Source: a virus. Taken from it: a DNA stretch of 64,000 nucleotides. The notes under the pieces are model-generated. The model was given only the letters and a program-made list of their open reading frames with translations. It searched no databases and was not told where the DNA came from. The position numbers and the translations under genes are program-made. The DNA lies in the IMG/VR virus record IMGVR_UViG_3300044846_005229, positions 143,986 through 207,985 of that record; one strand, given 5' to 3'. Shown here in pieces: positions 1,346-52,079 of this stretch (the stretch's first letter is position 1; each line of letters opens with the position of its first letter).

Positions 1346-1699
1346 CTAGTCGGACGGTAAAGCGTCAAGCGCCAAATCCCAGATCCAGTGGGTTTCGTCG
1401 CCCAGCGGGTCGCCAGCAAACTCAAAATTGGCTACCGCCGCTTCGGCTAGTTGAGTAGCGGTTTCGTAATCACTTGCGTTTGCTCGCATCCAAATTCTAA
1501 CGCTTTGTTTACTTACCGATGCCAATTTAGTAGGTGAATAGCCCAAATTCCCATGGCGCTGCAATGATAAGGACTCAATTTCTGATTTCCTCTGATTGCG
1601 TTCTCTTGCCGCCGCCATACTGTTTCGTAAATAGCGGTTTTCGGATCTTGCGCTCATTTTTCTAAGGAAGCGAATGGGCCGGGTTTGGTCCCGATGCAC
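1346..1699 (-). CDS. hypothetical protein (117 aa; start uncertain, could be the internal MSARSEN)
   Basis: ORF track; -10 box atcatagcac at about 1702-1711 lies immediately upstream. Confidence 0.45.
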   Translation of the reverse strand: MHRDQTRPIRFLRKMSARSENRYLRNSMAAARERNQRKSEIESLSLQRHGNLGYSPTKLASVSKQSVRIWMRANASDYETATQLAEAAVANFEFAGDPLGDETHWIWDLALDALPSD

Positions 1700-1735
1700 T
1701 AATCATAGCACATTGCCACGGGGTTGGGGCCTTGG

Positions 1736-2720
1736 GTAGGGGCCTTGGGGTTGTTGACTCCTGGGGTGTGGTGGTTGCTGTGGGGTTGCTGTGGGGGTTG
1801 AGTATCTGGGGTTGTTGACTCCCAAGGTGTGGTGGACAGTTTGTAAACTGTCTATTTGCGTTGGGAGTTTGGTACCGAGGGTGTGTTTTCGGAGTTAATG
1901 TGGAACCTCAGGGTGCATTTTCCGGGTAATGTAGAATGCCCCAAATTGAAAACCTGAAATTCAATCCCTGAGATCCATTGCGGGGGAACGGAGTTACTCC
2001 TAAAAAAATTAAAAATTTTAGGACCTAGTGAAAAACGATTCAAAAAATTCTACATTTGAATGCAAATTCTGCACCCTGGGGCTCTTTATATACACTTTTT
2101 CGCGAATATATGTATAATGAGTGTTTACCTTATGTTGTTATAGTTTGTTGTTGATGGGTCCAAGTAGTCAACAACTGGGAGTGGTCCCAACAGTCTCAGT
2201 TAAGTATCGGAATGAGTCTACATCGAGTAGTTTACAGTTGGTATTAGTCCCAACAGTCTCAGTTAAGTATCGGAATGAGACCCAACCGAACAGTCAACAA
2301 CTGGAATACGGTCTCAACAGTCTCGTTTCAGTCCCATAATGAGACCACACCTCAGGGTAAATATGGCAGGTATTTTCGGAGTTAATGTGGAACCTTGGGG
2401 TGCGTTTTGTGAGTAATGTGGAATGTTGAGTGCAGTTTTCGGAGTAATGTGGAAACCACAAAATCAAAAAACCAAAATCCATTCCTTGAAATCGACTGCA
2501 GGGCAACGGAGTTACTCCTAAAATTTTTGAATTTTTTAGGACCTAATGAAAAAACGATCCAAAAGTTCCACATTTGAATGCAAATTCTGCACCCTACTAC
2601 TATATACTCGCGTAAAAATTATTTATAGTACACCCTTATCTAAATATCCATAATCAATAAGTTACCCTTATCTATGTACCAACCAATGAGTAATAGCGGT
2701 AAAGCAACAAAAAAAGGAGG
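1736..2720 (+). repeat. composite repeat module copy A: IR element (about 1911-2076), plus-strand TATAAT (about 2113-2118), 24-nt direct-repeat array (2193-2343), second IR element (about 2380-2595), conserved AT-rich tail
   Basis: About 90% identical over about 950 bp to 5300..6240; partial third copy at 10085..10440. Seen directly in the sequence. Confidence 0.85.
2193..2343 (+). repeat. array of GTCTCAGTTAAGTATCGGAATGAG direct repeats (2 perfect and 1 degenerate terminal copy) with about 35-40 nt intervening segments, downstream of a TATAAT box
   Basis: Repeat starts at about 2193, 2256 and 2320; the promoter-like tgTATAATgag sits about 75 nt upstream. CRISPR-like or iteron-like layout. 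Confidence 0.6.
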
Positions 2721-2810
2721 GTCACCTTTCGGCAGCCCCCATATCAGTAAGTATTTATATTTACTGGGTGAAATTAGACCCCGGAACCAACAACCCCGGC
2801 AGCCCGACCT

Positions 2811-3134
2811 TCAATAGCCAGCAAAGTCGTATCTATCGAAAGGTACTGGATCCCGCTTAATTTCTGATTCGATAATTTTGCGTGATTCGCTGTCCCAATG
2901 GCGCACAGTGACGGACTCTGTAGCAAATCCCCAGTTTTCCTCAGGTTGCCGGGTATAGTGAACCTTGGCATCATCCAGGCTTGCCCATACGAAGGCTTCA
3001 GGATTAGCTACGATCTGCTCCACCGCTTCCATGGTTTGGCAGAGGGTAGTGCCATTGGCACCCCTAACAGTATAACCAGCAATGCGCTTGCCAACTTCAT
3101 CGGTCGTGACATAGCAGTAGTCGATGGTTGCCAT
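2811..3134 (-). CDS. hypothetical protein (107 aa)
   Basis: ORF track; consensus promoter at 3160-3195 (minus-strand GGGGTTGAC, 18 nt, TGCTATAAT). Confidence 0.6.
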   Translation of the reverse strand: MATIDYCYVTTDEVGKRIAGYTVRGANGTTLCQTMEAVEQIVANPEAFVWASLDDAKVHYTRQPEENWGFATESVTVRHWDSESRKIIESEIKRDPVPFDRYDFAGY

Positions 3135-3159
3135 TGGTGCGCCTCGGTTGGTTGACCTA

Positions 3160-3195
3160 GGTATTATAGCATGGGTTCCTGGGCAAGGTCAACCC
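3160..3195 (-). promoter_or_regulatory. representative consensus sigma70-type promoter (-35 TTGAC at about 3188-3192, extended -10 TGcTATAAT at about 3163-3171)
   Basis: The same architecture recurs before most minus-strand genes (e.g. about 610, 1320, 4316, 4811, 5245, 7003, 7035, 7885, 9160, 13995, 17845, 21465, 22035, 25690, 28215, 28730, 33955). Confidence 0.7.
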
Positions 3196-3234
3196 CTTGA
3201 GTTCCCCCCTACGGCAAGCAGATGCCAGGATCAA

Positions 3235-3513
3235 TCAACCTTCGTACAAGGAAACATCATAGCGATGGGAGTAAAAATCCCCTAGCCCCCCACTATCGAC
3301 CACCAACATAAAGTCAAAGTCCGGGTGAGTTAGCACCACTTGTGTGGACTCGCTTTCGTAAATATTCCCATTGGACACACCCACCTGATCAAGGAAATAC
3401 CCTAAACTCTCAATATTGTCCATGTCTGGTATTTCGTAGTCGATTATCCGATAGCTATTCTCACCTTGTTCAAACAAATCTGTGACGGAATCAGGGATTT
3501 CGTAGGTTGCCAT
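3235..3513 (-). CDS. acidic hypothetical protein (92 aa)
   Basis: ORF track; -10 gtagtatagcac at about 3550-3562. Confidence 0.6.
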   Translation of the reverse strand: MATYEIPDSVTDLFEQGENSYRIIDYEIPDMDNIESLGYFLDQVGVSNGNIYESESTQVVLTHPDFDFMLVVDSGGLGDFYSHRYDVSLYEG

Positions 3514-3588
3514 TATTGGTCAGGGTGTTGCTGGTGTGGTCGATGGTAGTATAGCACGGATAGGCGAGTTGCCGGGGACCCCCGAAAG

Positions 3589-4020
3589 TCAATTAAAGCC
3601 GAGGATAAACTTACGTGCCGCTTCCGGCGTATTAAGTTGTCCGCCCATCATCATCATCAAGCCCAAACTGCAACCTACGTGTCCAGCTGTTTCAGGGTGC
3701 TTTTCAAGGTCGCTAAACATCGAGGAGAGGGCATTTTCTGCATCACCACGATCGCAGTATTCAAGGGCGCGTTTCTTGCACCATTCTAAGTGTTCGGATC
3801 GGTTTATTTGGGGGGTGTTGGTGTCGGGTGTTTGACTTTGGATGTTTGTCAATGGCAGTATAGCACGGATGGTCAGGGGACCGTGGTTGCCATTATGGTT
3901 GGTGACGCTTCGTAAAGACAGGCACGGCAAGTTGCCGATGGGCTTTTGGGTTTTGTTGCATTTCGCAACAACAGGCAAGGAAGGGCCACCGGCAGGCAAC
4001 CCCCCCCCCCCCAAGATCAT
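3589..4020 (-). CDS. hypothetical protein (up to 143 aa); N-terminus ambiguous
   Basis: Its ATG overlaps the stop of the upstream gene 4017..4286 (ATGA junction), which suggests coupling. However, a TATACT box at about 3858 and a C13 tract lie inside the N-terminal region. The conserved-looking part begins around RSEHLEWCKKRALEYCDRGD. Confidence 0.4.
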   Translation of the reverse strand: MILGGGGLPAGGPSLPVVAKCNKTQKPIGNLPCLSLRSVTNHNGNHGPLTIRAILPLTNIQSQTPDTNTPQINRSEHLEWCKKRALEYCDRGDAENALSSMFSDLEKHPETAGHVGCSLGLMMMMGGQLNTPEAARKFILGFN

Positions 4021-4286
4021 GCCATGAACTTAGCAATAGCCTCTTCGGCATCGGCACCATCGGCACCATGATTTACCATAAACTCCAACACAAGGCCAGT
4101 ATCACTATCGAATCGCGTCAGAAGGGAATCCAACAGTTCATCTTGACTGACACCACCAGAGGCATTCTGAAGCTCTGACATCCTGCTGTCCATGGCTTCA
4201 TTCCTAAGCTCATCAAGGCTCATCAAATCGACATAACGTTGGCAATGGGCTTCGGCGATCTCACGAATCAAGGATTGGTCGAACAT
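4017..4286 (-). CDS. hypothetical protein (89 aa)
   Basis: ORF track; promoter cggtattatagcac at about 4310-4325. Confidence 0.6.
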   Translation of the reverse strand: MFDQSLIREIAEAHCQRYVDLMSLDELRNEAMDSRMSELQNASGGVSQDELLDSLLTRFDSDTGLVLEFMVNHGADGADAEEAIAKFMA

Positions 4287-4412
4287 GGTTGCGTGTGCGG
4301 TTGGTTGACTTCGGTATTATAGCACAGGGGGGGCCACGGTGCGAGGGATGTTACAGGGGTAACAACAGGCACGGCAAGGGGCCAGGGTTCACAACCCCGA
4401 CCCCCAGGACAG

Positions 4413-4787
4413 TCAACCAAGGGCCACAATGGCATGTAAATTGGTGCGCCACGTTCCAGGCAGCTTCTCACCACGACGACCTACGATCACGGGCAATTCC
4501 CCAACCATCTCAACTACGGTATCAATCTCAAATACTTGCAAGGTGGCCGCCAGCCAGGTTCCAAACCAGCGAGTCCGACCCGTGGCCTTGGCAATGTAAC
4601 GGCAGCCATGGGGGCCTTCCATGGCAAACTCTCCTTCCTCCAAACAAAGATCATGGGGCGCATCAGCCAGGACATCCCAGTGTCCCCACCAGCCTTTACG
4701 GACGCCACCAGGGGCCTTCTCGCAGGGCTCAGCGGTGAATGAACCGATGCGGTTGATGGGTGAGGTGGCGGCGGTTGCGAATGCCAT
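4413..4787 (-). CDS. hypothetical protein (124 aa), start moved to MAFATAATSP
   Basis: Track ORF 4413..4859 overlaps the promoter aaattatagcatg (about 4808-4820). First ATG after the TSS is at 4787. Confidence 0.55.
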   Translation of the reverse strand: MAFATAATSPINRIGSFTAEPCEKAPGGVRKGWWGHWDVLADAPHDLCLEEGEFAMEGPHGCRYIAKATGRTRWFGTWLAATLQVFEIDTVVEMVGELPVIVGRRGEKLPGTWRTNLHAIVALG

Positions 4788-4881
4788 TGTTTCCGGTGGG
4801 TGCGATACCTTGAAATTATAGCATGTTTCCAAGGGGGTCAGGGTGCATCCCAACCACAAAACTGCCTATTAGCAACAAAAC

Positions 4882-5217
4882 TTAACCCATAATGCCCCCA
4901 GGCCAACGTCCTCCCGGCGGGGTGCGCTCTGATGGGGATAGTTCGGGTGTTTCATCATAATAGCTAGGACACAATTTGGCGAGGCGCTCTGCGTCGGAGA
5001 CGCATTGGCAGCATGGATTGTGCCTATTTTCCGCCATATAATTAGCGCCGCGCTTTGTTCTGAATGGTCCGATAACTGCCATGAAGTGTGGGGTATTGGC
5101 TTTGGTAGGGGTAACTACCGATTTGAAAACCTCCAATTTACCTTGGCCGTATGGCAAACCCACATAGAATTTTGCCCGTTGGGGTGTGTTGGTGGTTGAG
5201 GGGGTTGCGGTAGCCAT
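4882..5217 (-). CDS. hypothetical protein (111 aa), Cys-containing C-terminal half
   Basis: ORF track; promoter cgtaattatagcac at about 5243-5256. Confidence 0.55.
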   Translation of the reverse strand: MATATPSTTNTPQRAKFYVGLPYGQGKLEVFKSVVTPTKANTPHFMAVIGPFRTKRGANYMAENRHNPCCQCVSDAERLAKLCPSYYDETPELSPSERTPPGGRWPGGIMG

Positions 5218-5299
5218 CGTTGCGGTGTCGGTTGGTTGGCTTCGTAATTATAGCACATGGACGGGTCTGGATGCGGTTCGGCATGTTGGTGCGGTTCGG

Positions 5300-6240
5300 C
5301 ATGTTGACTCCTGGGGTGTGGTGGACAGTTTGTAAACTGTCTATTTGCGTTGGGGGTTTGACTTTAGGGGCTTGATTCCAGGGTGTATTTTAGGGGTTAA
5401 TGTATAATCCGGGGTGCGTTTTCCGGGTAATGTAGAATGCCTAATTTGAAAAGTCCGAAAGTCAACCGCTGAGATCGATTGCAGGGCAACGAGTTTACTC
5501 CTAAAATTTTTGAATTTTTTAGGACCTAGCGAAAAACCATCCAAAAAATTCTACATTTGAATGCATATTTTGCACCCTGGGGTCTTTATATACACTTTTT
5601 CGCGAATATATGTATAATAAGTGTTTACCTTATGTTGTTGGTGAGTTGAATAGTTGACGACTGGGTGTGATCTCGTCAGTCTCAGTTAAGTATCGGAATG
5701 AGTTCACATCGAGTAGTCTACAGTTGGCATCAGCCCCAACGGTCTCAGTTAAGTATCGGAATGAGACTCCACCAAATAGTAAACAACTGGGGTACGGTCT
5801 CAACAGTCTCGTTTCAGTCCCACAACAAGACTCATCCAAATAGTAAACAACTGGGGTACGGTCTCAACAGTCTCACTTCAATCTCACAATGAGATCACAC
5901 TTCAAGAGTAAGCAGATGGGTGCGTTTTTCCAGTAATGTAGAAACCCAGGGTGCATTTCCCAAGTAATGCAGAAACCCTAAAATCAAAAACCCGAAACTC
6001 AATCCCTGAGATCGACTGCAGCGGAACGGAGTTACTCCTAAAAAAATTAAAAATTTTAGGACCTTTTCAAAAACAGCATGAAAAATTCTACATTTGAATG
6101 CATATTTTGCACCCTACTACTATATACTCGCGTAAAAATTATTTATAGTACACTCTTATCTAAATATCCATAATCAATAAGTTATCCTTATCTATGTACC
6201 AACCAATGAGTAATAGCAGTAAGGCAACAAAAGAAAGGGG
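5300..6240 (+). repeat. composite repeat module copy B (IR element about 5385-5575; TATAAT about 5613-5618; 24-nt repeat array 5679-5893 with 2 perfect and 2 degenerate copies; IR element about 5915-6115)
   Basis: Paralogous to 1736..2720. The intervening segments are homologous between copies and one is internally duplicated. Confidence 0.85.
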
Positions 6241-6279
6241 GGAATCACCCTAAGGCAATCCCTCCCCTAAAAACAGCAC

Positions 6280-6465
6280 CTATGCCCAAATGGTCTCAAC
6301 ACGGGCATCATGCCCTTTCATCTTCATCGCTTCGGCGATTCTCTGAGCCACGTTCCGATCATGGTAATCCGCCCTGGTGGTATAGCCAGGAGCCCCAGAA
6401 CCAGGGGCAATCGAACCAGTGGCAATCGAACCAGGGGCGATGGTGACACGGTGTAGTTGGGCCAT
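6280..6465 (-). CDS. small hypothetical protein (61 aa)
   Basis: ORF track; promoter (tcttagcac ... gtcaaccccccc) at about 6490-6535. Confidence 0.5.
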   Translation of the reverse strand: MAQLHRVTIAPGSIATGSIAPGSGAPGYTTRADYHDRNVAQRIAEAMKMKGHDARVETIWA

Positions 6466-6533
6466 GGTGCGGTTTGGTGCGGTTGGTATGGACGTATCTT
6501 AGCACAGGTCCGAGGGGAACGTCAACCCCCCCC

Positions 6534-6965
6534 TTACCCGTACCACCCATACTGGCGAACCCTCTCCAAATAGGTCTCCCAAACCGACGGATCCATGGCA
6601 CCTGCCGTTGTCTTAAAGTGATGGGAGAAAAACGTAATGGCAAGCTCCATATTGCGCCTACCAACAGGATTAGCAGAATGAATGACCACAGCCGGTGGAA
6701 TAAACCCACCATCAAAACCATTCTCATACACAATTTGCTCAATCCACTTGCAAACATCCATGCCAGTTCCCCTAGCGTCATCCCCGAGATCATGATCCAA
6801 GGATACAACTTCGACATTGCCAGTCTTCAGCAATTCGATAACCTCATCAGGCCAATAGCAACGGACCCACCCATCAGGGGTAGGCCTGATATCATCGAGA
6901 AATACTTTCATTGCCTTGGGTTTAGGTAGACTGTGGGCGTGGTTGCCATTGGGGGTGGTTGCCAT
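6534..6965 (-). CDS. CPR (cyclic-phosphate-processing receiver-like) domain protein
   Basis: MKVFLDDIRPTPDGWVRCYWPDEVIELLKTGNVEVVSLDHDLGDDARGTG resembles the Rec-like CPR domain described in RNA-repair gene neighbourhoods (recalled, not searched). Two tandem TATAAT promoters at about 7003 and about 7035. Confidence 0.5.
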   Translation of the reverse strand: MATTPNGNHAHSLPKPKAMKVFLDDIRPTPDGWVRCYWPDEVIELLKTGNVEVVSLDHDLGDDARGTGMDVCKWIEQIVYENGFDGGFIPPAVVIHSANPVGRRNMELAITFFSHHFKTTAGAMDPSVWETYLERVRQYGWYG

Positions 6966-7102
6966 TGGGGGTGGTCCGGTGGGTGACGGTAGGGGAATTA
7001 TAGCATAGGCCTGGCAGGTTAGTTGGTGGCCCCGTAATTATAGCACAGGGGGGTCAGGCTACGGGTGCCGTTACATTCCGTAACAACAGGTACGGCAAGG
7101 AG

Positions 7103-7216
7103 TCACTGGATGGCAACCCCTGTAAAGAATTGGCCAGGTTGTGGGGTTATGCTTTCGCTCCTGAAGGGTAGCCAGGCGAAGAAGGGCAGCCCTGCGGCTG
7201 ATAATCCTAATTCCAT
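7103..7216 (-). CDS. possible 37-aa hydrophobic peptide (MELGLSAAGLPFFAWLPF...)
   Basis: Small ORF found by manual rc translation, downstream of the TTGACA-17-TACAAT promoter at about 7262-7292. Not in the track (<60 aa). Confidence 0.25.
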   Translation of the reverse strand: MELGLSAAGLPFFAWLPFRSESITPQPGQFFTGVAIQ

Positions 7217-7460
7217 TTCCCACTATTTGCCTTCACGTCTACCTGTATTTTGGGTTGTTTAGCCATTGTAGCATGGGCCTGGCAGTGTCAACTCATGGCG
7301 TTAACTGAGTTTACTGCAACATGGTTGCCGTTGGTTGGTGGCGATTGGGTTTGAACCCATTGTTTGCGGGGGGCTGGTGGGCTGGTGATAGGGGAATTGT
7401 AGCATGGCCCGGCAGGTTGGATGGTTTACTTTGGTAGTATAATACGAACCCGATAGGCAG

Positions 7461-7826
7461 TCAATCCTTAGCGGTAATCTCAGCACCTTCCAGTAGTTTG
7501 GAAGCTAGGTCAGTATCACCCGCCTTAATTGCGTTTTGGATGCGTTCTTTCAAGGTTAGCTCGTATGACCATTTTCGGCCGTTGATGGTGCCCCTGACAT
7601 TGCCCCCGACAGAGCCCTCGACAGAGCCCCCGACAGAGCCCCCGACAGAGCCCCTGACATTGCCCCCGACAGAGCCCCTGACATTGCCCCCGACAGAGCC
7701 TAGGACATCACCCAAGACACCACCCCTGACATTGCCCCCGACAGAGCCCTCGACATCATTTACCCGCCATTCACCGCTGATTCTGGTGAAAGTAACTAGT
7801 TTTTTAATTTCTTCAATGCTTGGCAT
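7461..7826 (-). CDS. Gly/Val-rich octapeptide-repeat protein (GSVGGNVR x about 9), possibly a beta-helical or bactofilin-like fold
   Basis: ORF track; internal 24-nt periodicity visible in the DNA; promoter ggaattatagcatgg ... gtcaaccc at 7875-7915. Confidence 0.55.
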   Translation of the reverse strand: MPSIEEIKKLVTFTRISGEWRVNDVEGSVGGNVRGGVLGDVLGSVGGNVRGSVGGNVRGSVGGSVGGSVEGSVGGNVRGTINGRKWSYELTLKERIQNAIKAGDTDLASKLLEGAEITAKD

Positions 7827-8017
7827 TTCAATTTAGGGGTTTGATGATGTCATGGTGTGTCCGGTGGTTGGTGACAAAGGAATTATAGCATGGGTCCGGC
7901 AGACAGTCAACCCTTAGGGACCTGGGGCCACACCCCAAACAGCAAAAAAAAGGGGGGGGCCGATGCCAACGGCACCAACCCCCCCCCCAAGCAATCGGCC
8001 GATACCGACGGCTCCAA

Positions 8018-8275
8018 TCAGCTAGCCACTGCAAGCAGCCGATCAGCCACTGCACCCTTCGCAGTACGCTTCCCATCGAGATAATACAAGGTATAAACTC
8101 GCCCCGGCTTCACACTGGGGGTTACCGTAACGGTCAGGGCCTTGCCGTTGATGCGGATGGCAGTTTCGGCCTTTGCGCCGGATGCTGTAGCTTGTTGCAC
8201 GGTGTTGGCTTCAGTGGTATCAAGGCGGGCAAGCAGGGTGTCAAACTTACGGATGGTCAGAGGGGGAGTAGCCAT
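8018..8275 (-). CDS. hypothetical protein (85 aa), start moved to MATPPLTIRK
   Basis: Track ORF 8018..8323 begins inside the promoter (TTGACA-17-TATAAT at about 8325-8360 on the minus strand). Confidence 0.55.
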   Translation of the reverse strand: MATPPLTIRKFDTLLARLDTTEANTVQQATASGAKAETAIRINGKALTVTVTPSVKPGRVYTLYYLDGKRTAKGAVADRLLAVAS

Positions 8276-8440
8276 GGTTGTGGGTGGGTTGTGTTGTGGG
8301 GTGAATCCCCGGGACCTTGCCATTATAGCCCAGGTGAGAGACGGTTGTCAATGCTTGACTGGTGGCAAGATCCCCCGAGGGTCACCATATTATGGCATAT
8401 TGCCGGAGTTATTGCAACCTGCTGCGTTGGCGACCAGGGG

Positions 8441-8469
8441 TTGACAACCGCCGGAATCCACGCTATAAT
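8441..8469 (+). promoter_or_regulatory. perfect consensus plus-strand promoter TTGACA-17-TATAAT
   Basis: ttgacaaccgccggaatccacgctataat; it drives the conserved block listed next. Confidence 0.7.
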
Positions 8470-8475
8470 ATGCAC

Positions 8476-8545
8476 ATAACCAAACGAGGGGCGAGGTAGC
8501 CCTGAAGACGAAAAAGGTCGCCACGGAACCTGCTTGCTTATAGTT
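8476..8545 (+). ncRNA. candidate small RNA, copy 1 (conserved block GAGGGGCGAGGTAGCCCTGAAGACGAAAAAGGTCGCCACGG...)
   Basis: A near-identical about 50-nt block recurs at 10020-10075 behind a second consensus plus-strand promoter. No ORF. Followed by an A7G6 tract and a CCGGAGTCA short-repeat region. Confidence 0.45.
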
Positions 8546-8653
8546 ATTACCGGACAGTAAAAAAAGGGGGGTTGACCCTCGGGTTTTATCCCAGAGTCAT
8601 AGCCCCGGAGCCACAACCCCGGAGTCACAACCCCAGAGTCAAACCCCACGCAC

Positions 8654-9106
8654 TCAAGAATTACGGGCAATGACTTTTTTCAGGAAGTCCAAACCATCTT
8701 CATTGGTAACAAAGAAATGGGATCCAGCCTCATCACCTAGCAATAGTTGGCCAGCTGTAGAAGGCAATTTGGAGAATCCTACTTCCCCCGCCATCACTTG
8801 GGCGGTTCCCGCGATACAATGGACCGTACCACATTCGTTGAAGGCTTCTTTACCCGTAGTTTCTTTGCCAAGGTCGATACGAAACATTAAGGGACCCCAT
8901 GCCTGATGCCAATTAGCCATATCAAAGTTTTTCAAATCACGCTCTACAATCCAACGCGCCACATGGTGAAGGTTAGCCCTTTGTTGCTCGGGGGTGAGTT
9001 TGATGCTGAGGTTTTCAGGAATATGGGGCAACGGGGGAAGGCCGGGAGTAGTATCCAGCTTCTGGAGATTTAGGCGAGTAGCTTCAGTTAGGGAAAGGGT
9101 TTTCAT
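8654..9106 (-). CDS. hypothetical protein family X (150 aa; conserved NECGTVHCIAG motif), paralog of 45067..45525
   Basis: About 50% identity to ORF 45067..45570. Start moved to MKTLSLTEATRL, downstream of the promoter atcatagcac at about 9158-9167. Confidence 0.6.
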   Translation of the reverse strand: MKTLSLTEATRLNLQKLDTTPGLPPLPHIPENLSIKLTPEQQRANLHHVARWIVERDLKNFDMANWHQAWGPLMFRIDLGKETTGKEAFNECGTVHCIAGTAQVMAGEVGFSKLPSTAGQLLLGDEAGSHFFVTNEDGLDFLKKVIARNS

Positions 9107-9267
9107 GGTTTTGGAAGGGGGGGTTAGTTGCCTGGTTGGTTGGTTGGTTGACTCTGTAATCATAGCACAGGGCCAGGGGAAGGTCAACCCTTAGGGACCT
9201 AGGGCCACAACCCCGGAGTCAATACCCTGGAGTCATAGCCCCCAATCCCCAATCCCCAATCCCAAAG

Positions 9268-9741
9268 TCATGCCGCAGCAAACTGCTTATTCCGGGAATA
9301 GAAACGCTCACAGCCATACTTGACCGCAATTTCATCCAAACTACCCGGATTGGAGCGGCTCCGGCCCAGCCCTGCAGGCTTCCAGAACCAGCATTTCCGG
9401 CCACTATGCCAGCGGCACCCCAGAGCCTTAAGGTCTTCCTTAACGGGCTTGGTATCACCCGTGACCCATACCCATAGGCCAATCAGGCTGATATCAAGGT
9501 TGGGAATCTTAAGCAATTCCGCAATCTGATCCATGATGGCCTGCTCGGTTTTTTCCGTATAGCGGTAGGTCCGGCCATCGTCCTCTTGACCGTTGCAGGC
9601 TGCCAGGGCCTCGTGGTAGGCGGCATTAAGGGCCTTCATGGTTTCCAGATCGCCACCAAGATCAGGGTGGTGCTTGCGAGCCAGATCACGGTAAGCGCTT
9701 TTGACTTGCTCAACAGTGGTGAGGCCAGTGAAGAATGTCAT
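9268..9741 (-). CDS. J-domain (DnaJ-like) protein
   Basis: YRDLARKHHPDLGGDLETMKALNAAYHEAL carries the HPD motif. Start moved to MTFFTGL after the promoter at about 9770-9812. Confidence 0.65.
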   Translation of the reverse strand: MTFFTGLTTVEQVKSAYRDLARKHHPDLGGDLETMKALNAAYHEALAACNGQEDDGRTYRYTEKTEQAIMDQIAELLKIPNLDISLIGLWVWVTGDTKPVKEDLKALGCRWHSGRKCWFWKPAGLGRSRSNPGSLDEIAVKYGCERFYSRNKQFAAA

Positions 9742-9868
9742 TGCCGGTTCCAGGTGGTGGGTGACTTTGGTAGTGTAGCATGGTTGCCGGTGGGTCGTCA
9801 ACCCCCCCCCTTTTTTAGGGGAAGGTTAAAACCGCTACCTGCTGACCCATGAATTATAGCATGTCCGA

Positions 9869-9975
9869 GGGCCAACTGTGGATGGCCGGAAGTTAGTGCC
9901 CATAGGCTGACAGCGGGTTCGGGGGGCCAACTGTGGATGGCCGGGAGTTAATGCTCATGGGCCGACACATTGCCG
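9869..9975 (+). repeat. two direct copies of an about 45-bp element GGGCCAACTGTGGATGGCCGG(A/G)AGTTA.TGC.CAT.GGC.GACA
   Basis: Seen directly; contains the near-palindrome GGCCA-N9-TGGCC. Lies between a minus-strand promoter (gaattatagcatg, about 9851) and the plus-strand sRNA promoter. Confidence 0.6.
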
Positions 9976-9981
9976 AAGGGG

Positions 9982-10011
9982 TTGACAAGACTAGGGTAGT
10001 CGCCCTATAAT
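9982..10011 (+). promoter_or_regulatory. second consensus plus-strand promoter TTGACA-18-TATAAT
   Basis: gttgacaagactagggtagtcgccctataat. Confidence 0.7.
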
Positions 10012-10019
10012 AAGCAAAC

Positions 10020-10080
10020 AATCAGAGAAGGGGCGGGGTAGCCCTGAAGACGAAAAATGTCGCCACGGCCCCTACTTGCA
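10020..10080 (+). ncRNA. candidate small RNA, copy 2 (AAGGGGCGGGGTAGCCCTGAAGACGAAAAATGTCGCCACGGCCCCT...)
   Basis: Paralog of 8485-8540; contains a potential AGGGGC...GCCCCT closing stem. Confidence 0.45.
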
Positions 10081-10084
10081 ATTA

Positions 10085-10440
10085 AAGAGTTTATGCCATT
10101 GAGTTTATGCCATGGTGCATTTTGCGAGTAATGTAGAAGTCTAGGGTGTGTTTTCGGAGTTAATGTAGAATGCCAAGGGTGCTTTTTCTGGGTAATGTGG
10201 AAACCCCCAAATTGAAAATCGAAAATTCATTCCCTGAGATCCGTTGCAGGGCAACGGAGTTACTCCTAAAATTTTTGAATTTTTTAGGACCTAATGAAAA
10301 AACGATCCAAAAGTTCCACATTTGAATGCAAATTCTGCACCCTACTATCATATATTCGCGAAAAGTATATTTAATAGAAGACTCTTATGTATAGTTCCAT
10401 AACCAATAAGAAATCCTTATCACTGCACCCTCCATTCAAA
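10085..10440 (+). repeat. composite repeat module copy C (partial: one IR element with three GTGC.TTTT..G.GTAATGT.GAA direct repeats, hairpins GGAGTTACTCC and CCTAAAA...TTTTAGG)
   Basis: Homologous to the IR elements of modules A and B; lacks the internal promoter and array. Confidence 0.8.
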
Positions 10441-10441
10441 G

Positions 10442-10663
10442 TCAATCCACAGCCAACTCAAAGTCAACCTCAAAGGGGCCATCCCAATCCTGAGCCCATT
10501 GGGGGGCGCCCATGAAGCGAAGATCGTCCGACTGATGAGAGAATGGTTCAGGAACCGTGTCAACTACACAGACCCAAGTTGGAAGATTCTCCCGACGCAC
10601 GGGGTGGGCAGTGTCCCCGATCCATTCTTGAGCCAGGAAGGTGCAGCGTAGGGTGTGTGCCAT
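10442..10663 (-). CDS. hypothetical protein (73 aa)
   Basis: ORF track; promoter-like tagtttagcatgg ... gtcaaccccc at 10690-10740. Confidence 0.45.
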   Translation of the reverse strand: MAHTLRCTFLAQEWIGDTAHPVRRENLPTWVCVVDTVPEPFSHQSDDLRFMGAPQWAQDWDGPFEVDFELAVD

Positions 10664-10815
10664 TGTGAGGTCGGTGGGTTTCGGTTGGTATGGGCCTAGT
10701 TTAGCATGGTTGCCGTGGGAGCGTCAACCCCCTAGCTTCAAGGATTGGCAAGCATGGGGCCGGGAGTGCGTCAACCTATCGGCAACAACTCCACGGCCCC
10801 CAGCCCTGACAGCAA

Positions 10816-16787: not shown

Positions 16788-17552
16788 TTAAAGTGTCACT
16801 TCAAACGTTCCGTGAGAATCGTCCTTTGCATTCCTCTTAAGAAAGGGCGCAATTCCTAGCCAATCGTTATGCGTTACCGGGTAGAACACATGAAGATAAC
16901 TACTGATGTGCTCAGGAATTCTACTAGAAAAATACTTATCGGCTTTCACCAATTCGTAAATTTTTGCGTAGGTTTCTTGATCTGGACGAATGATAACCTT
17001 GCTGATGCATTGATCATAATCATATTCACAGCTATAATAAGAAATGTTCTCAATTTTCAAGTCATCTTTATTAAGAACCCAGGGATGTCCTTTAAGATAC
17101 TCCAAAAGTTCAGGAAGATTGAAGTATTTGTTGTTGAACTGAGAGTCAATGTAATTAAACCCACGCGGAAGAGTATAAGGAACAGCATTTGAATCAAAAA
17201 ACATATGGCCAGAACTATAAATCCAAACAAGATTCTCTTCAGAAATGTTACCTTCAAGAATCTCCTCATCACTCATTTCGTGATATTCATAGGTCCAGAA
17301 CGGATTATAAGTTTTAATGAATTCAAAGAATGAGTCCCTAACTAATGCCGGTCTGCATTCTTTAAGAACTTTCAGGCTTTTATCTTTGACCGCATTGATA
17401 ACTTCAACTACTGCGGAAGTCTTACCTGATGGCTCCACCGTGGTAGTCGTCACTTGAAGATAGGCAAGACTCTTATCCACACCGGGAATAATGTAAGATA
17501 CAATCTCCGTAAATGTTGTGTGACGGGTATTTTCAAATGGTGCGAGTTTCAT
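16788..17552 (-). CDS. hypothetical protein family Y (about 254 aa), paralog of 32610..33338; AT-rich
   Basis: Very high identity including a near-identical about 300-nt DNA stretch (compare the identical spurious plus/minus ORFs at 17057..17272 and 32843..33058). Start set at MKLAPFENTRH by analogy with MELTPIKITRH. Confidence 0.65.
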   Translation of the reverse strand: MKLAPFENTRHTTFTEIVSYIIPGVDKSLAYLQVTTTTVEPSGKTSAVVEVINAVKDKSLKVLKECRPALVRDSFFEFIKTYNPFWTYEYHEMSDEEILEGNISEENLVWIYSSGHMFFDSNAVPYTLPRGFNYIDSQFNNKYFNLPELLEYLKGHPWVLNKDDLKIENISYYSCEYDYDQCISKVIIRPDQETYAKIYELVKADKYFSSRIPEHISSYLHVFYPVTHNDWLGIAPFLKRNAKDDSHGTFEVTL

Positions 17553-20518: not shown

Positions 20519-21442
20519 TCAAACCCAATCCTCAGCTTCTTTCCGAGTCATATAGAAATGAATACCGTTAGTACACTCAATCCGAATATCGTCATCATAA
20601 CTATCTGCAACCACAATCTCGCCTTCCTCGTATTCAAGGGCATTCCAAGTATGGATAGGGGAGTTGCCGGACCCTTCCAAGACTAAAACATGGGACGCCC
20701 TACATTTCCTACCCACCAATGTAGAAGTTCTCTTAGCATCTTCTGGGATCAGGATTTTGATAACCCCTGTATCAACTTTTTTGAACGCAATAAATGACCC
20801 CTCCTCTGGGACTAATTGAAAGGGGGGAAGAGTTGCACCCCGGAGATCAGCACCCTGGAGAATAGCACCCCGGAGAATAGCACCCCGAAGATTAGCATCC
20901 CGGAGATCAGCATCCTGGAGATCAGCACCCCGGAGATCAGCACCCTGGAGAATAGCACCCCGGAGAATAGCACCCCGGAGATCAGCACCCCGAAGATTAG
21001 CATCCCGGAGATCAGCTTCCTGGAGATTAGCACCCCGGAGATCAGCACCCCGAAGATTAGCATCCCGGAGATTAGCACCCTGGAGATCAGCATCCCGGAG
21101 AATAGCACCCCGGAGATCAGCATCCTGGAGATTAGCACCCCGGAGAATAGCACCCCGGAGATCAGCACCCCGGAGATCAGCATCCCGGAGAATAGCACCC
21201 TGGAGAATAGCACCCTGGAGAATAGCACCCCGGAGATCAGCACCCCAGAGAATAGCACCCTGGAGATCAGCACCCCGAAGATTAGCATCCCGGAGATCAG
21301 CATCCTGGAGATTAGCACCCCGGAGATCAGAAAACGGCCCAATAACGTACTCAGACCCGTTGATTAGCATTGTTTTGGAAGACATTGTTTTTGGAGAATG
21401 GGTATTGGTGGGGGGTTGATTGGGAGCGGTTTGCCCTGGCAA
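20519..21442 (-). CDS. pentapeptide-repeat protein (about 40 A(D/N)LRG repeats) with N- and C-terminal non-repeat domains
   Basis: ORF track; 15-nt DNA periodicity. The opposite-strand and alternative-frame ORFs here (20812..21342, 20816..21367) are repeat artefacts. Palindromic AAGTATAAATAC motif at about 21525 and consensus promoter at 21455-21495. Confidence 0.8.
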   Translation of the reverse strand: MPGQTAPNQPPTNTHSPKTMSSKTMLINGSEYVIGPFSDLRGANLQDADLRDANLRGADLQGAILWGADLRGAILQGAILQGAILRDADLRGADLRGAILRGANLQDADLRGAILRDADLQGANLRDANLRGADLRGANLQEADLRDANLRGADLRGAILRGAILQGADLRGADLQDADLRDANLRGAILRGAILQGADLRGATLPPFQLVPEEGSFIAFKKVDTGVIKILIPEDAKRTSTLVGRKCRASHVLVLEGSGNSPIHTWNALEYEEGEIVVADSYDDDIRIECTNGIHFYMTRKEAEDWV

Positions 21443-21561
21443 CGGGCCCCACTATCTCACTATAGCATGGTGCCGGGGCAGTGTCAACCCCCATAGCTTC
21501 AACCCCTAGGTCAGATAAGTATAAATACCTACCCACCCAAACAGTATAAGCACTAAGGCCA

Positions 21562-23142: not shown

Positions 23143-24570
23143 TTACCCCGAAACCCTGACATCCCTAATCTCTATACCCTCAGCTTCCAGCAACTCCCGG
23201 AGCCTATCTGCCTCCTTAAAATCACGGTTAGCCCTTGCGATATTACGTTTTTCAATTAGTGCTTGAATACCATCGCTTTTTGGTTTTTGAGGTGCGGGAA
23301 CCTCATGAACTAATCCTAAAATTCCGGCCAATTCACATAAGAGCCTCCAACGATTTAGAATTTCCCTATTTTCATCGCCCGCTGATACGATGGGGCGAGC
23401 CAAATAGAACAATTCCCCGATGGCTACAGACGTATTAAGATCATCATTGAGTGCCGAAATGAAACGATCTTGACTATTTTTTAAGTCTGTAGTTAAAATC
23501 AAGGGTTCATTCGTTTGCTGACTATCGCCATGTTGACTAATTCCATGCCGACTAACATCATGCTGACTAGCCCCATGCCAACTATCACCATGCCAACCAA
23601 ACCCCAATGCAGCATTTAATACTTTCCAACCATTGATCGCGGGCACCATTGCTTCCGAATTAAAATCTATCGGCTTTCTATAGTGGGCTTGTAATACGAA
23701 TAATCTAATGGTCATAGGGCTAATTCCTGATCCAATTAGGTCTCTGATGGTTGTGAAATTCCCTAAGGATTTAGCCATTTTCTCTTCCCCAACCGTGACA
23801 AACCCATTATGAAGCCAATACCTGGCTAGTTCAGCCCCATTGGCGGCCTCCGACTGGGCTATCTCGTTTTCGTGGTGAGGAAAGATCAGGTCGGCTCCGC
23901 CCAAATGAATGTCAATCGTGTCGCCCAACTCCCCGCGCACCATAGCCGAACATTCAATGTGCCAGCCGGGACGGCCCCACCCCCATGGTGACGGGTACCC
24001 ATGGTCAATAGGCATTGCCCCTTTCCAAAGAGCAAAATCAAAAGGGTGGCCCTTCTTTGAGTCGCTATTAACCTGTTGTTGGCCAAGGTTGCGACCACTT
24101 AGTTTCCCGTACCCCTTAAACCCCACAACCGAGAAGTACATATCACCACCCATAGAATAAGCAAACCCTTTATCAGCAAGGTCTTGAATCATGGTGCGGA
24201 TTGCATCAAGACTACGGGTAACCCTTGGCATTTTGTCGGCAGGCAGGATGTTCAATGTGCCCATGTCTTCCTCAAAGGCCTTAATATTGCGCTCACTGAC
24301 GGCCCCGATTGTTACTCCTTCGGAGTTGGCTTTGGCTAGAATTTTATCGTCGATATCCGTATAATTTTGAACAAACGTAACCTCATACCCATGCCACATA
24401 AAATTACGCCTTAAGACATCCCACACGATATAACTACGGGCGTGCCCTAAGTGGCATAGATCATAAACGGTAACACCGCAACAATACATCGACACTTTGC
24501 CTGGAACCAGCGGGATAAACTTCTCTTTGGTTTTAGTTAGGGTGTTGGTTAGGGTAATGTCGTTAATCAT
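23143..24570 (-). CDS. cysS: cysteinyl-tRNA synthetase (class I; HIGH = CHLGHARSY, KMSKS = KMAKSLGN) with a low-complexity insertion WHGDSWHGASQHDVSRHGISQHGDSQQ
   Basis: Full-length alignment-level similarity to CysRS (zinc ligands and anticodon-binding region present). The insertion is encoded by about 15-nt tandem DNA repeats (catgYYgactaRYM) at about 23520-23600. Confidence 0.9.
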   Translation of the reverse strand: MINDITLTNTLTKTKEKFIPLVPGKVSMYCCGVTVYDLCHLGHARSYIVWDVLRRNFMWHGYEVTFVQNYTDIDDKILAKANSEGVTIGAVSERNIKAFEEDMGTLNILPADKMPRVTRSLDAIRTMIQDLADKGFAYSMGGDMYFSVVGFKGYGKLSGRNLGQQQVNSDSKKGHPFDFALWKGAMPIDHGYPSPWGWGRPGWHIECSAMVRGELGDTIDIHLGGADLIFPHHENEIAQSEAANGAELARYWLHNGFVTVGEEKMAKSLGNFTTIRDLIGSGISPMTIRLFVLQAHYRKPIDFNSEAMVPAINGWKVLNAALGFGWHGDSWHGASQHDVSRHGISQHGDSQQTNEPLILTTDLKNSQDRFISALNDDLNTSVAIGELFYLARPIVSAGDENREILNRWRLLCELAGILGLVHEVPAPQKPKSDGIQALIEKRNIARANRDFKEADRLRELLEAEGIEIRDVRVSG

Positions 24571-32609: not shown

Positions 32610-33338
32610 TCATACGGCCGCGTTCATAAGAAAGGGAGCAATTCCCAGCCAATCGTTATGCTTTTCACGGTTGAACAGATAAAGATAACTGCTGATGTTC
32701 TCAGGAATTCTACAAGAGAAAAACTTATCAGTTTTCACCAATTCATAGATTTTTGCATAGGTTTCTTGGTCTGGACAAATAAGGACACTGATATATTTAT
32801 CTCTACCATCGCTGCAATTATAATAAGGAACATCCTCAATCTTCAGATCTTCTTTATTAAGAACCCAGGGATGTCCTTTAAGATACTCCAAAAGTTCAGG
32901 AAGATTGAAGTATTTGTTGTTGAACTGAGAGTCAATGTAATTAAACCCACGCGGAAGAGTATAAGGAACAGCATTTGAATCAAAAAACATATGGCCAGAA
33001 CTATAAATCCAAACAAGATTCTTTTCGGAAATGTTACCTTCAAGAATCTCTTCATCACTCATATTGTGATATTCATAGTCCCAAAATGGGTTATTAGTTT
33101 TAATTCGTTCAAAGAATGAATCTTTAACAAAAGTAGGTCTGCATTGTTTAAGAACTTTCAGGTCCCTATCTTTGACCGCATTGATAACTTCAACTACTAC
33201 GGAAGTCTTGCCGGATGGTTGCACTGTGGAAGATGTTACTTTAAGATAAGCAAGATTCTCATTTACGCCTGGAATAATATAATCTACAATCTCCGTAGAT
33301 GTTTCGTGGCGAGTGATTTTAATTGGGGTGAGTTCCAT
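32610..33338 (-). CDS. hypothetical protein family Y, paralog of 16788..17552; AT-rich
   Basis: Near-identical C-terminal about 100 aa and DNA; start set at MELTPIKITRHE. Confidence 0.65.
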   Translation of the reverse strand: MELTPIKITRHETSTEIVDYIIPGVNENLAYLKVTSSTVQPSGKTSVVVEVINAVKDRDLKVLKQCRPTFVKDSFFERIKTNNPFWDYEYHNMSDEEILEGNISEKNLVWIYSSGHMFFDSNAVPYTLPRGFNYIDSQFNNKYFNLPELLEYLKGHPWVLNKEDLKIEDVPYYNCSDGRDKYISVLICPDQETYAKIYELVKTDKFFSCRIPENISSYLYLFNREKHNDWLGIAPFLMNAAV

Positions 33339-34934: not shown

Positions 34935-35684
34935 TTACATTTTCATCGTGGCATCCAGACGCAAGCCCCCAGAGAAGATAACCTTAGCCATTGTGTCAGG
35001 CAGCGTCCCCAGTAGGTGCAGAGAGTCTAAAGTGGAAAACATAAACATTTTGTTAAGCTCTTCCCTTACCCTTTCCCTGGAGACGCAAGCTAGCATTTCT
35101 ACTGCCAAGTCACTGCGCAATACAGCATAAGTTTCATCATCGGGGACGAATCCTTTGGTAATTTGGAACCTGAACCCTCTTAGAACTCTGAGGCCGTCTT
35201 CTCTGATCCGGTCAGCAGGGTTCCCAACGAAACGAAGAATTTTATTCTTAACGTCGGAAACTCCCCCGAAAGGGTCAATCAGAGAGCCATCAATAGCTTT
35301 GGCGATTGCCCCACTGGTAAAGTCTCTTCTGGCCAAATCATCAAGTAAAGTCCCCGGCACCACCCAATCAGGACGGCGACCATCGGTGTAGGGGCCATCT
35401 TTGCGGGCTAGTACAAAGTCAGCGACGGTGGTGCGGGCTTCTAGCACATGGCCCTTTGGGACCCGCGCACGGATGGTTAGAAACTCACGGCGAGATTCGA
35501 AAATCTGGAAACCTTGCTCGGCAAGCTGAGCTTCCATTGCTAAGAAAGCGCTATCTGCCGTGGCGAAGACACCCTCGGGTGCAACAACGGAAAAATCAAT
35601 GTCCTTGGATGGAATCCCGAGCAAACTGTCACGGACGCACCCACCAACCTCAAAAAATTCAAATTTTTCTGCTTGGCTTGTCAC
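34935..35684 (-). CDS. class II tRNA nucleotidyltransferase (CCA-adding-enzyme-family) head/neck domain protein, only 249 aa
   Basis: GGCVRDSLLGIPSKDIDF, RRDFTSGAIA and DGSLIDPFGGVSDVKNKILRFVGNPADRIREDGLRVLRGFRF match the Pol-beta-superfamily CCA-enzyme head and neck motifs. Confidence 0.8.
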   Translation of the reverse strand: MTSQAEKFEFFEVGGCVRDSLLGIPSKDIDFSVVAPEGVFATADSAFLAMEAQLAEQGFQIFESRREFLTIRARVPKGHVLEARTTVADFVLARKDGPYTDGRRPDWVVPGTLLDDLARRDFTSGAIAKAIDGSLIDPFGGVSDVKNKILRFVGNPADRIREDGLRVLRGFRFQITKGFVPDDETYAVLRSDLAVEMLACVSRERVREELNKMFMFSTLDSLHLLGTLPDTMAKVIFSGGLRLDATMKM

Positions 35685-38073: not shown

Positions 38074-38796
38074 TCAACTAAAGATATCCACTGTTTCTTT
38101 TTTCTTAATCTGCCAGTAAGTGTCTCGTGTAGCATTATACGCAGTTAAAATACCTGAGAATACAGCCCCGGTATCAATCCCGATACGGTCATTAGTTATG
38201 TCCGGATCTTTACCTACGATAGTATGACCATGGACAACTCTCTTTATTTTGGCGGTCCATTCATGCAGTTCAGGTCCCAGGCTAAGGAATGGTTCACGTA
38301 TCCATAGTAGGTTGTCGGCCTTTTTAGTTTTAATTTGTTCAAAGGGATCATGCCCAGGAAACACTCCAGCATGAATAAACATTGTGTCCCCCACAGTCAT
38401 GTAGATAGGTAGTTGTTTGATCCATTCATAGTGATTGGCCTTCATGTCTTCAAACTGTTTAAGATTGCCGCCATTCTTCACCCAAAGCGTCAAAGAATTG
38501 TATCCCCACGAGGTTTCGGATCCTACAACAACATCCATAAACATACGCTCATGGTTACCCCTCAGCACATTGAAACTTTCTAGTCCTGCACTTTCGGGGT
38601 CATCCATAAGCTCCTTGACTTTGTTAAGGACCTTCATATCTTCCCCGCCACGATCTATCAAGTCCCCCAGCAGAATCACTCGCGCCCTGGTTCCATTAAG
38701 CCACTTTAATGCGGCAGCTAAAACATCATAACGAGCGTGGATGTCACCAATGGCTACTACATCACCGGCATTTACTTTTTTCCTTAGTTTAGTCAT
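38074..38796 (-). CDS. calcineurin-like metallophosphoesterase (PPP/lambda-phosphatase-type: GDIHARYD ... GDLIDRGGED ... GNHE)
   Basis: Canonical metallophosphatase motifs I-III; directly downstream of the P-loop kinase gene. Confidence 0.8.
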   Translation of the reverse strand: MTKLRKKVNAGDVVAIGDIHARYDVLAAALKWLNGTRARVILLGDLIDRGGEDMKVLNKVKELMDDPESAGLESFNVLRGNHERMFMDVVVGSETSWGYNSLTLWVKNGGNLKQFEDMKANHYEWIKQLPIYMTVGDTMFIHAGVFPGHDPFEQIKTKKADNLLWIREPFLSLGPELHEWTAKIKRVVHGHTIVGKDPDITNDRIGIDTGAVFSGILTAYNATRDTYWQIKKKETVDIFS

Positions 38797-38891
38797 TTTA
38801 CTTCGGGGGTTTTACTTTGGGGTTAATACTTCGGTATTTACCCTGTGGATATCCTATGGGTAATCTTGCGGGGTCACCATACGGGACCATA

Positions 38892-39389: not shown

Positions 39390-39499
39390 AAAAAAAAAAA
39401 GGGGGGGGGGGTTCAAGGACCAGGAGTGTAGGGGTTCAAGGACCAAGGATGCCATAACCACATCAATTACACTTAGTATAGCATACCGCCAACCAAAGG

Positions 39500-39742
39500 T
39501 CAACGCCCGAAAGTCAAAAACCTATATCTATCCAACCAATCCTTTAGCAAATCATCATCTTCGACTACTTGGGAGTTTTGATTTACAAAATCTTCAACTA
39601 CCCACGCAACTTCTTTGAATTGCAATTCATTGCAATCCGGTTTGAATGAGACTTTGAGATTGGGGTATTTGGGTAGTATGGCCGCTAGTTGTGACTTTAG
39701 ACTTGATGGTGTGCTCATTTTGCAACTGCCGGGATTCAACAA
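39500..39742 (-). CDS. hypothetical protein (80 aa)
   Basis: ORF track. Confidence 0.45.
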   Translation of the reverse strand: MLNPGSCKMSTPSSLKSQLAAILPKYPNLKVSFKPDCNELQFKEVAWVVEDFVNQNSQVVEDDDLLKDWLDRYRFLTFGR

Positions 39743-51929: not shown

Positions 51930-52079
51930 TTTTCTTCTCTCAAGTTGATTGTTTTGTGTTTGTGTTTCGGATACAAATAATAGCTGTATCAACTTTGCCC
52001 CTAGGAGTTAATTTTAGGGGTGGTGGTGGGGGGCACTGACGGCCCCGATATTGGGCAGTTTGTAACTTAGCTGGGTCAA

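Follow-up and report, generated by a model that had tools for sequence, protein, structure and literature searches.

Tandem repeats that follow a promoter and end in a degenerate copy raise the question of whether a virus carries a CRISPR-like locus or merely an array that looks like one. Here, we address this question for a stretch of 64,000 nucleotides (nt) of the IMG/VR virus record IMGVR_UViG_3300044846_005229 (positions 143,986 to 207,985; the whole stretch is hereafter called the window), in which a preliminary description had noticed three related modules (A, B and C) between positions 1736 and 10440 and had likened the 24-nt repeats of modules A and B to a CRISPR array. As we detail below, this likeness is superficial only. 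The modules are made of cassettes in which an element of ~190 bp (E) adjoins a palindromic, AT-rich segment predicted to be a promoter (P1 or P2), followed by a short non-coding downstream body. We consider it close to an even bet that these cassettes are lineage-specific, non-coding cis-regulatory units, which would launch antisense non-coding transcription.

Anatomy and distribution of the cassettes

The composite anatomy had been read correctly in the preliminary description: in modules A and B two copies of E flank a promoter-like leader and a tandem repeat, and a third copy, in module C, lacks the array. Motif and repeat searches recovered a family of ~182 bp with members at 1896, 2414, 5397, 5934 and 10162, and the previously noted arms (AATGTAGAAT/ATTCTACATT), the sequences GGGTGCA/TGCACCC, the palindrome GGAGTTACTCC and the motif CCTAAAA-N10-TTTTAGG were all present. 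Modules A and B are similar, as described, at an identity of 87.6% over aligned columns (77.6% when gaps are counted) in place of the ~90% first given; by part, the identity amounts to 98% in P1, 97% in P2 with its tail, 81–88% in the elements and 86% in the array.

Module A begins with a left-flank hairpin (GACAGTT-TGTA-AACTGTC followed by TATTTGCGTT; 1835–1852, + strand), found by direct reading upstream of the first element; it is weakly terminator-like, was not listed by the terminator scan, and belongs to a type that recurs at module B (5324–5341, + strand) and in many relatives. The first element, E1 (1879–2076; no strand is assigned to any copy of E), contains two direct copies of the bipartite motif GGGTGY-N11-TAATGTRGAA (DR1, 1879–1905; DR2, 1911–1936) with an A-rich stretch after them, the palindrome GGAGTTACTCC (1990–2000), the CCTAAAA-N10-TTTTAGG motif (1999–2022) and an inverted motif copy (2048–2076). 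It is followed on the + strand by P1 (2089–2118) and by array A (2119–2351), in which a conserved leader precedes three units of 63/64 nt, each with a dyad of the form GTCTCR-N14-YGAGAC (2193–2218, 2256–2281 and 2320–2345). The second element, E2 (2366–2594), carries one degenerate and two full direct motif copies with a 31-nt period at 2373–2454, the core palindrome and an inverted copy ending in TGCACCC (2588–2594), and leads into the + strand P2 segment with its tail (2595–2700; TATAGT at 2624–2629; CTTAT-N17-ATAAG-N5-CTTAT). The cassette boundary is formed by the minus-strand terminator (GC hairpin and T run; 2708–2740) of the convergent gene at 2811–3134, and equivalent hairpins sit after most P2 tails.

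Module B repeats this layout, with E1 at 5381–5577, P1 at 5589–5618 (+ strand), array B at 5619–5900 (+ strand; the leader, then four units with dyads at 5679–5704, 5742–5767, 5806–5831 and 5870–5895), E2 at 5918–6114, and P2 with its tail at 6115–6262 (+ strand), ending at a minus-strand terminator (6262–6241). Module C consists of one element with three direct motif copies, the core palindrome and an inverted copy (10113–10342), and a P2-type segment with its tail (10343–10440, + strand; CTTAT-N17-ATAAG-N5-CTTAT). Upstream of it lies a consensus + strand promoter that reads towards the module (TTGACA-18-TATAAT, 9982–10011), after which come a conserved GC-rich stretch and a tandem repeat of 14 nt (10087–10113). 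The orthologous segment of the related IMG/VR contig L013 (4073–4215) has the same layout, with TTGACA-17/18-TATAAT and four copies of the 14-nt repeat versus two in the window; the fold of 9982–10113 was no better than that of shuffled sequences.

The conserved core of E retrieved as relatives the IMG/VR contigs L036 and L013 and 18 freshwater-lake metagenome loci. The whole set, which includes the public contig L070, comprised 40 distinct element copies, 39 of them evaluable, and 10 arrays with 30 units. L070 encodes the exact 107-amino acid (aa) protein of the gene at 2811–3134 and extends 7.2 kb to the left of the window start; it represents the same genome or a near-identical strain and holds three further element copies in that left stretch, arranged on its reverse strand as a single E-P2 cassette (~8280–7990) and an E-P1-single-unit-E-P2 pair (~5600–4990). 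The cluster thus comprises at least eight element copies (five in the window and at least three to its left) over at least 17.5 kb. No copy of the element-core 19-mer was found in GTDB genomes, and none of the exact 24-mer in IMG/VR or the JGI metagenomes, in scans for exact patterns that would miss diverged relatives and diverged host repeats. Likewise, IMG/VR held no relatives of the 107-aa protein, and among 50,697 phage records there was no DNA match to the first 12 kb (near mode) or to module A (distant mode). So far, the cassette family is restricted to one lineage of freshwater jumbo-cyanophage-like viruses. The source virus is itself freshwater jumbo-cyanophage-like, and the best relatives of its Ro-like protein (50457–51992) come from the jumbo Synechococcus phages B3 and B23 (57% identity).

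Throughout this set, each evaluable element (39/39) abuts, at a fixed distance, either P1 (13 distinct copies) or a P2-type segment (26 copies), and all copies within a locus share a single orientation, opposite to the open reading frames (ORFs). In the window almost all ORFs lie on the minus strand (13,784 aa opposite to the cassettes versus 2,176 aa), as do all tRNAs. P1 (TTTATATACACTTTTTCGCGAATATATGTATAAT) contains the palindrome TATACA-N5-TCGCGA-N5-TGTATA and shows no change over more than 40 nt among its 13 distinct copies. The plus-strand TATAAT box reported earlier, which ends at 2118 and 5618, belongs to a conserved TATACA-18-TATAAT pair (10/12 match) with the 16–18-bp spacing of −35 and −10 boxes, and P1 is therefore predicted to be a sigma-70-type promoter. 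Downstream of P1 there is an invariant leader and then one to five units. P2 exists as three alleles with a weaker −10 that differs between them. Its tail carries CTTAT-N16/17-ATAAG-N5-CTTAT, a spacing kept by 25 of the 29 distinct tails (the other four each have one changed CTTAT copy), and is followed by the convergent gene's terminator, with intervening sequence in several alleles. The P1 and P2 motifs do not occur elsewhere in the window.

The element itself is a mosaic, in which the invariant sequences AACGGAGTTACTCCTAAAA, TTTTAGGACCT and ACATTTGAATGCA and two to four direct copies plus one inverted copy of the bipartite motif, at a 31-bp period, are separated by variable blocks that exist as few alleles and are reassorted among copies. 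This defines a multi-copy family of cis-elements with a very regular grammar of binding-site cluster, palindromic promoter and phased downstream motifs. The earlier idea of a selfish mini-element, such as a miniature inverted-repeat transposable element, did not survive: since on the right the element always borders on a promoter segment (P1 or P2 in 39/39), the inverted arms are internal and do not mark the element's boundaries, and no duplication flanks them. We also rejected E as a structured RNA, given the lack of compensatory changes and the weak consensus folding on both strands (RNAalifold over 176 columns: −8 kcal/mol for + and −17 kcal/mol for −). The arms showed no covariation on either strand; at the R/Y position that pairs AATGT(A/G)GAA with TTC(T/C)ACATT, the counts (AU 13, GC 5, AC 7, GU 10) equalled those expected under independence. 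Rfam contained no known RNA family matching E, and ARAGORN and Rfam together revealed no tRNA-like or known RNA family in the cassette region.

The tandem units compared with CRISPR and other arrays

The 24-mer GTCTCAGTTAAGTATCGGAATGAG is present as exact + strand copies at 2193, 2256, 5679 and 5742; shuffled sequences gave no match even with three mismatches, and none is expected by chance. In place of the two to four copies every ~63 nt first given, each module has two exact copies of the 24-mer, the remainder being divergent units (one in A, two in B) at a period of 63 or 64 nt. The repeating entity is the whole unit of 63 or 64 nt, although the L044 array also has a truncated 20-nt unit and another array a broken dyad. 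What had been taken for a degenerate terminal repeat is a conserved second unit type, and GTCTCGTTTCAGTCCCATAATGAGAC is the commonest type in the relatives. The segments that separate the 24-mers form two conserved classes and are, as had been noticed, related to each other and between copies. Within the 64-nt class they share a mean identity of 85% (120 pairs, different phages) and recur in other phages; between classes the identity is 58%, and the dyad segments, at 78%, rank below the linkers of the 64-nt class. When 28 units from related phages were compared, variability was among the highest in the central hexamer of the 24-mer (0.83 bits per column) and lower in the core of the supposed spacer (0.54 bits). 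The 24-mer is hence the most conserved part only inside this genome. The argument that its conservation implies function is weakened, as relatives vary the 24-mer and no exact copy was found in the other collections scanned.

These comparisons bear directly on whether the arrays are guide-RNA or decoy arrays, be it an orphan CRISPR mini-array, an RNA anti-CRISPR (Racr) or an array of tandem interspaced guide RNAs (TIGR), a family of readings that we consider very improbable. Racrs mimic host CRISPR repeats in sequence and structure (PMC10651486). Like CRISPR arrays, viral mini-arrays and Racrs (PMC10651486), the arrays of this phage are promoter-proximal, follow a leader, have a period of ~63 nt and alternate a dyad segment with a less conserved one; the repeat can be drawn as 33–35 nt with gaps of 28–30 nt, and each unit has two more variable stretches. 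Unlike in those systems, the intervening segments are homologous, conserved and common to several phages, so that they are not unique spacers, and the layout of leader, repeat-spacer array and decayed last repeat does not apply. The absence of cas genes noted earlier extended to Cas, Nop and TnpB-type domains, none of which was found by Pfam in 50 ORFs. Neither array matched the Rfam CRISPR-DR families at E values up to 10 (the only such match, at E 3.6, falls within the minus strand of the ~190-bp element), and a junction motif covering both unit types had no exact match in 185,579 prokaryotic species genomes (GTDB) or in IMG/VR. For a Racr, the lack of an Rfam repeat family and of an exact-pattern match in prokaryotic genomes is to be read with the proviso that exact scans miss diverged repeats. 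One of the unit types, read on the minus strand, gives GGGACTGAAAC, which may resemble the 3' ends of cyanobacterial CRISPR repeats.

The comparison with TIGR arrays had a similar outcome. TIGR units are 36 nt long and consist of two 8–12-nt repeats and two ~9-nt spacers, or form two-spacer stem-loops with box C/D, and the arrays adjoin a gene for a Nop-domain Tas protein (PMC12045711). The arrays described here are likewise carried by a phage and alternate conserved parts with short variable ones in tandem, but they have a period of 63/64 nt, their variable stretches (~10 nt and ~6 nt) are variants of one another rather than unique sequences, and no box C/D pairs flank these stretches (PMC12045711). 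No Tas gene was recognised next to the arrays, where the flanking ORFs (61–117 aa) had no Pfam or PHROG match, nor was a Nop domain found in the 50 ORFs, although a very diverged Tas could be encoded elsewhere. Taken together, any CRISPR, TIGR or Racr reading appears hardly tenable. This removes a false CRISPR-like lead and illustrates that a diverging tandem repeat can mimic a repeat-spacer appearance.

Other kinds of repeat array were considered as well. ToxI, the RNA antitoxin of type III toxin–antitoxin systems, consists of near-identical tandem repeats followed by a terminator and the gene of a toxin endoribonuclease. Like ToxI or the CsrB/RsmZ sponges, a tandem repeat placed behind a promoter might serve as a multivalent RNA decoy; in contrast to these systems, the units of 63/64 nt are imperfect, share no loop motif (GGA), fold at chance level and are not followed by a toxin gene. 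A ToxI-like antitoxin was rejected, as each array is directly followed by another ~190-bp element, with no + strand ORF or terminator. It is also scarcely credible that the array or the element encodes a small repetitive protein. Part of arrays A and B can be read in an open + strand frame (VSVKYRNE), and one minus-strand frame is open through every copy of E. In the arrays, however, the mixture of 63- and 64-nt units breaks the frame, and starts, stops and ORF lengths varied when all six frames of nine arrays were compared. In E, the starts are not conserved, 1-nt indels occur and codon periodicity is absent, the variable columns being distributed as 29/31/24 over the three codon phases.

Candidate functions of the cassettes

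What, then, might the cassettes do? We interpret E as protein-recognised DNA rather than as folded RNA or a gene, because its short motifs are invariant, the spacings correspond to whole helical turns, covariation is absent and the spacers are reshuffled. Moreover, since a well-formed promoter is invariably attached, facing away from E and against the genes, we favour a role in transcription control. The phased spacings, at 31 bp for the direct repeats, at 63/64 bp for the units and within CTTAT-N16/17-ATAAG-N5-CTTAT, support this reading, as does the second, consensus + strand promoter directed into module C, which L013 shares.

In the mechanism that we propose, E would be the platform, an operator or enhancer, to which one or more DNA-binding regulators bind; once bound, these would time the firing of P1 and P2. 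The resulting transcripts would be non-coding and antisense to blocks of small early genes, and might damp early expression or yield small RNAs. Transcription from P1 would traverse the array and the element that follows it, and P2 transcripts would approach the upstream early gene from its 3' end, as in lambda OOP; antisense transcripts arriving from the previous cassette could end at the left-flank + strand hairpin of modules A and B. The 63/64-nt array would represent an amplified segment downstream of P1, whose copy number may shift by unequal recombination between E copies. In lambda, Po lies beyond the 3' end of an early gene, points back and gives rise to OOP, a single terminated RNA of 77 nt. 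P2 shares this geometry, being located past an early gene's 3' end and facing into the gene, whereas the cassettes differ by their at least eight copies, the lack of clear + strand terminators, the large upstream element and the subtype with tandem repeats. If the promoters fire as predicted, antisense transcription would be organised across the early-gene blocks, and the proposal, if true, would provide a testable mechanism for the early-to-late switch in cyanophages.

Several observations weigh against this proposal. The whole-array fold was no better than that of shuffled sequences (z −1.6 for + and −1.3 for −). In addition, although 94% of the array-dyad cells pair on the + strand, 22 of them as G-U (C-A on the other strand), covariation was not significant, and the signal did not exceed that of shuffles (276 of 500). 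An RNA role of the array is therefore unproven. No + strand intrinsic terminator follows the arrays, and no candidate regulator gene was recognised, the flanking ORFs having no Pfam or PHROG annotation. Finally, the direction of the promoters is ambiguous, because P1 is palindromic, such that a minus-strand promoter into E (TATACA-18-TATATA) is about equal on sequence, and because the + strand −10 of P2 varies between alleles (TATAGT versus TAATAG).

The same data can be read in favour of protein–DNA assembly sites, such as iteron-type origins, titration or handcuffing control loci, or partition or packaging sites, which we regard as a serious though rather unlikely alternative. In this case, the motif copies and the 63/64-bp units would be protein-binding iterons and the P segment an unwinding region in which the promoter only assists. 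Iteron- or centromere-like repeats are known from P1 incA/incC, F sopC and the lambda origin; like these, the cassettes combine helically phased direct repeats, some with dyads, with adjoining AT-rich DNA and a variable copy number. The periods of 31, 63/64, ~10 and ~21 bp all correspond to whole helical turns, the AT-rich palindromic P segment directly adjoins the phased repeats, and invariant short motifs lie in a variable context without RNA covariation. The changes in the GTCTC/GAGAC dyad sit at the inner and outer edges of the arms, where conservation of DNA half-sites might explain them equally well as G-U wobble. Furthermore, the cumulative GC skew turns from rise to fall at ~10–12 kb, adjoining the cluster, although gene orientation is unchanged there. 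However, the turn coincides not only with the end of the cluster but also with a change of composition in genes and leaders, which makes it non-diagnostic. It would also be unusual for origins to occur as at least eight dispersed copies in ~17.5 kb, all in one orientation and each just downstream of an operon terminator. Here, unlike in the known systems, a well-formed promoter is always attached, and no initiator, partition or terminase gene was recognised among the neighbouring ORFs.

A comparison of collinear relatives, which differ by entire [element-P1-array] units, adds a further perspective. Where modules A and B of the window read E-P1-array-E-P2, L051 carries just one E-P2 cassette each, and it has a P1 where module C lies. 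Neither L051 nor L036 has arrays at the orthologous positions; in L051 and L052, a single unit-like fragment comes after P1, and then a convergent gene. Such differences in cassette content are as expected from recombination between E copies, and the cassettes mark recombination points at which early-gene content differs between relatives. In L051 (~8164–8800 in element-strand coordinates) and L052 (3913–4400), a minus-strand gene of an estimated ~150 aa replaces the array between P1 and the next element (the listed L052 ORF at 3913–4563 is a 216-aa read-through into the element), and P1 would be antisense to this gene.

One could view E-P as a regulatory cassette that also promotes recombination and the array as a neutral by-product, formed by tandem duplication of part of the downstream tail. 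We judge this unlikely. It would account for unit numbers between one and five in close relatives, as well as for the truncated 20-nt unit, the broken dyad of another array, the absence of arrays from L051 and L036, the unit-like fragments AATGAGTTAAGAACC in P2 tails and the reshuffled variable blocks of E. Against neutrality speak the invariant leader after P1 and the conservation across phages of both unit types, their order and the linker core (linkers 85% identical within the 64-nt class, dyad cells 94% paired). The model for such a cassette is the PeSL, a mobile promoter/stem-loop cassette of T4-type phages (PMC2839356, PMC4122927). Like PeSLs, the cassettes are multi-copy intergenic regulatory units among small early genes in a plastic region, and close relatives differ in what lies between the copies, as would fit recombination at the repeats. 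By contrast, PeSLs are short units of early promoter and terminator in gene direction, while the cassettes span 250–900 bp, point against the genes and contain a large cluster resembling binding sites; the ordinary early promoters of the window are the closer analogue.

Of the fallback ideas in the preliminary description, a transcribed decoy RNA and an iteron-type protein-binding array are the two that remain live, and sequence alone cannot decide between an action of the array at the RNA level, as a stem-loop decoy, and one at the DNA level, as an operator or iteron array. A decoy could also be combined with the regulatory reading in an undescribed kind of phage control system: an enhancer-like E would switch on the anti-gene promoters, and the P1 RNA, made of one to five stem-loops whose loops vary and whose linkers are rich in C and A, would serve as a decoy for a host RNA-targeting defence or an RNA-binding factor. 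Such a sponge would fit the unusually rich set of RNA-repair and tRNA genes, but seems doubtful to us.

Other features of the window

Beyond the cassettes, the window encodes a beta clamp and a dense set of RNA-repair, tRNA and ADP-ribose genes (6534–6965, 23143–24570, 34935–35684, 38074–39503, 52370–52969, 55278–55766 and 56576–57667), whose products include cREC_REC, a cysteinyl-tRNA synthetase, the head domain of a CCA/poly(A) polymerase, a metallophosphatase with an AAA_33 kinase (Pnk-like), Macro, NADAR and an RNA ligase. There are three tRNAs. In addition, two minus-strand tRNA-like genes (49869–49980 and 50088–50214), within ~500 nt of the Ro-like/DUF2828 gene, matched the Rfam tRNA model with 47.8 and 47.6 bits and were not called by ARAGORN. 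In both, an insert replaces the anticodon arm (in the first one the alignment spans 54 nt versus 13 in the model). This pair resembles the bacterial YrlA-type Y RNAs, but could alternatively represent intron-containing tRNAs.

Between 200 and 35000, nearly every small minus-strand gene is preceded by an early promoter of the form TTGAC-17-TGCTATAAT (for example at 594–628, 3146–3192 and 21458–21494), and the small early genes of the first ~35 kb have, behind their own promoter, a C/A-rich leader (GTCAACCAACC...ATG). These promoter and leader repeats form families of 8–18 copies, for which the PeSL early-promoter cassettes of T4-type phages are an analogue. In L036 (~890–960, 1450–1560, 1990–2100 and 3190–3260), a second family of intergenic repeats was observed that begins with GGGTGCGATGTTACAAAACTTAACATT and shares its GGGTGC start with the motif of the ~190-bp element; it was not seen on reading positions 1500–6500 and 9800–10700 of the window, although no search of the window aimed at it was made.

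Repetition also occurs within genes. A pentapeptide-repeat protein, a feature typical of cyanobacteria, is encoded by a 15-nt tandem repeat of ~33 copies (20519–21442), and a 12/24-nt tandem repeat in the ORF at 7461–7826 gives rise to a repetitive protein of the GSVGGNVR type. Lastly, two pairs of duplicated segments (8656–9100 versus 45069–45513, and 16835–17301 versus 32624–33087) are 77–81% and 86–90% identical, which indicates paralogous genes lying 16–36 kb apart.

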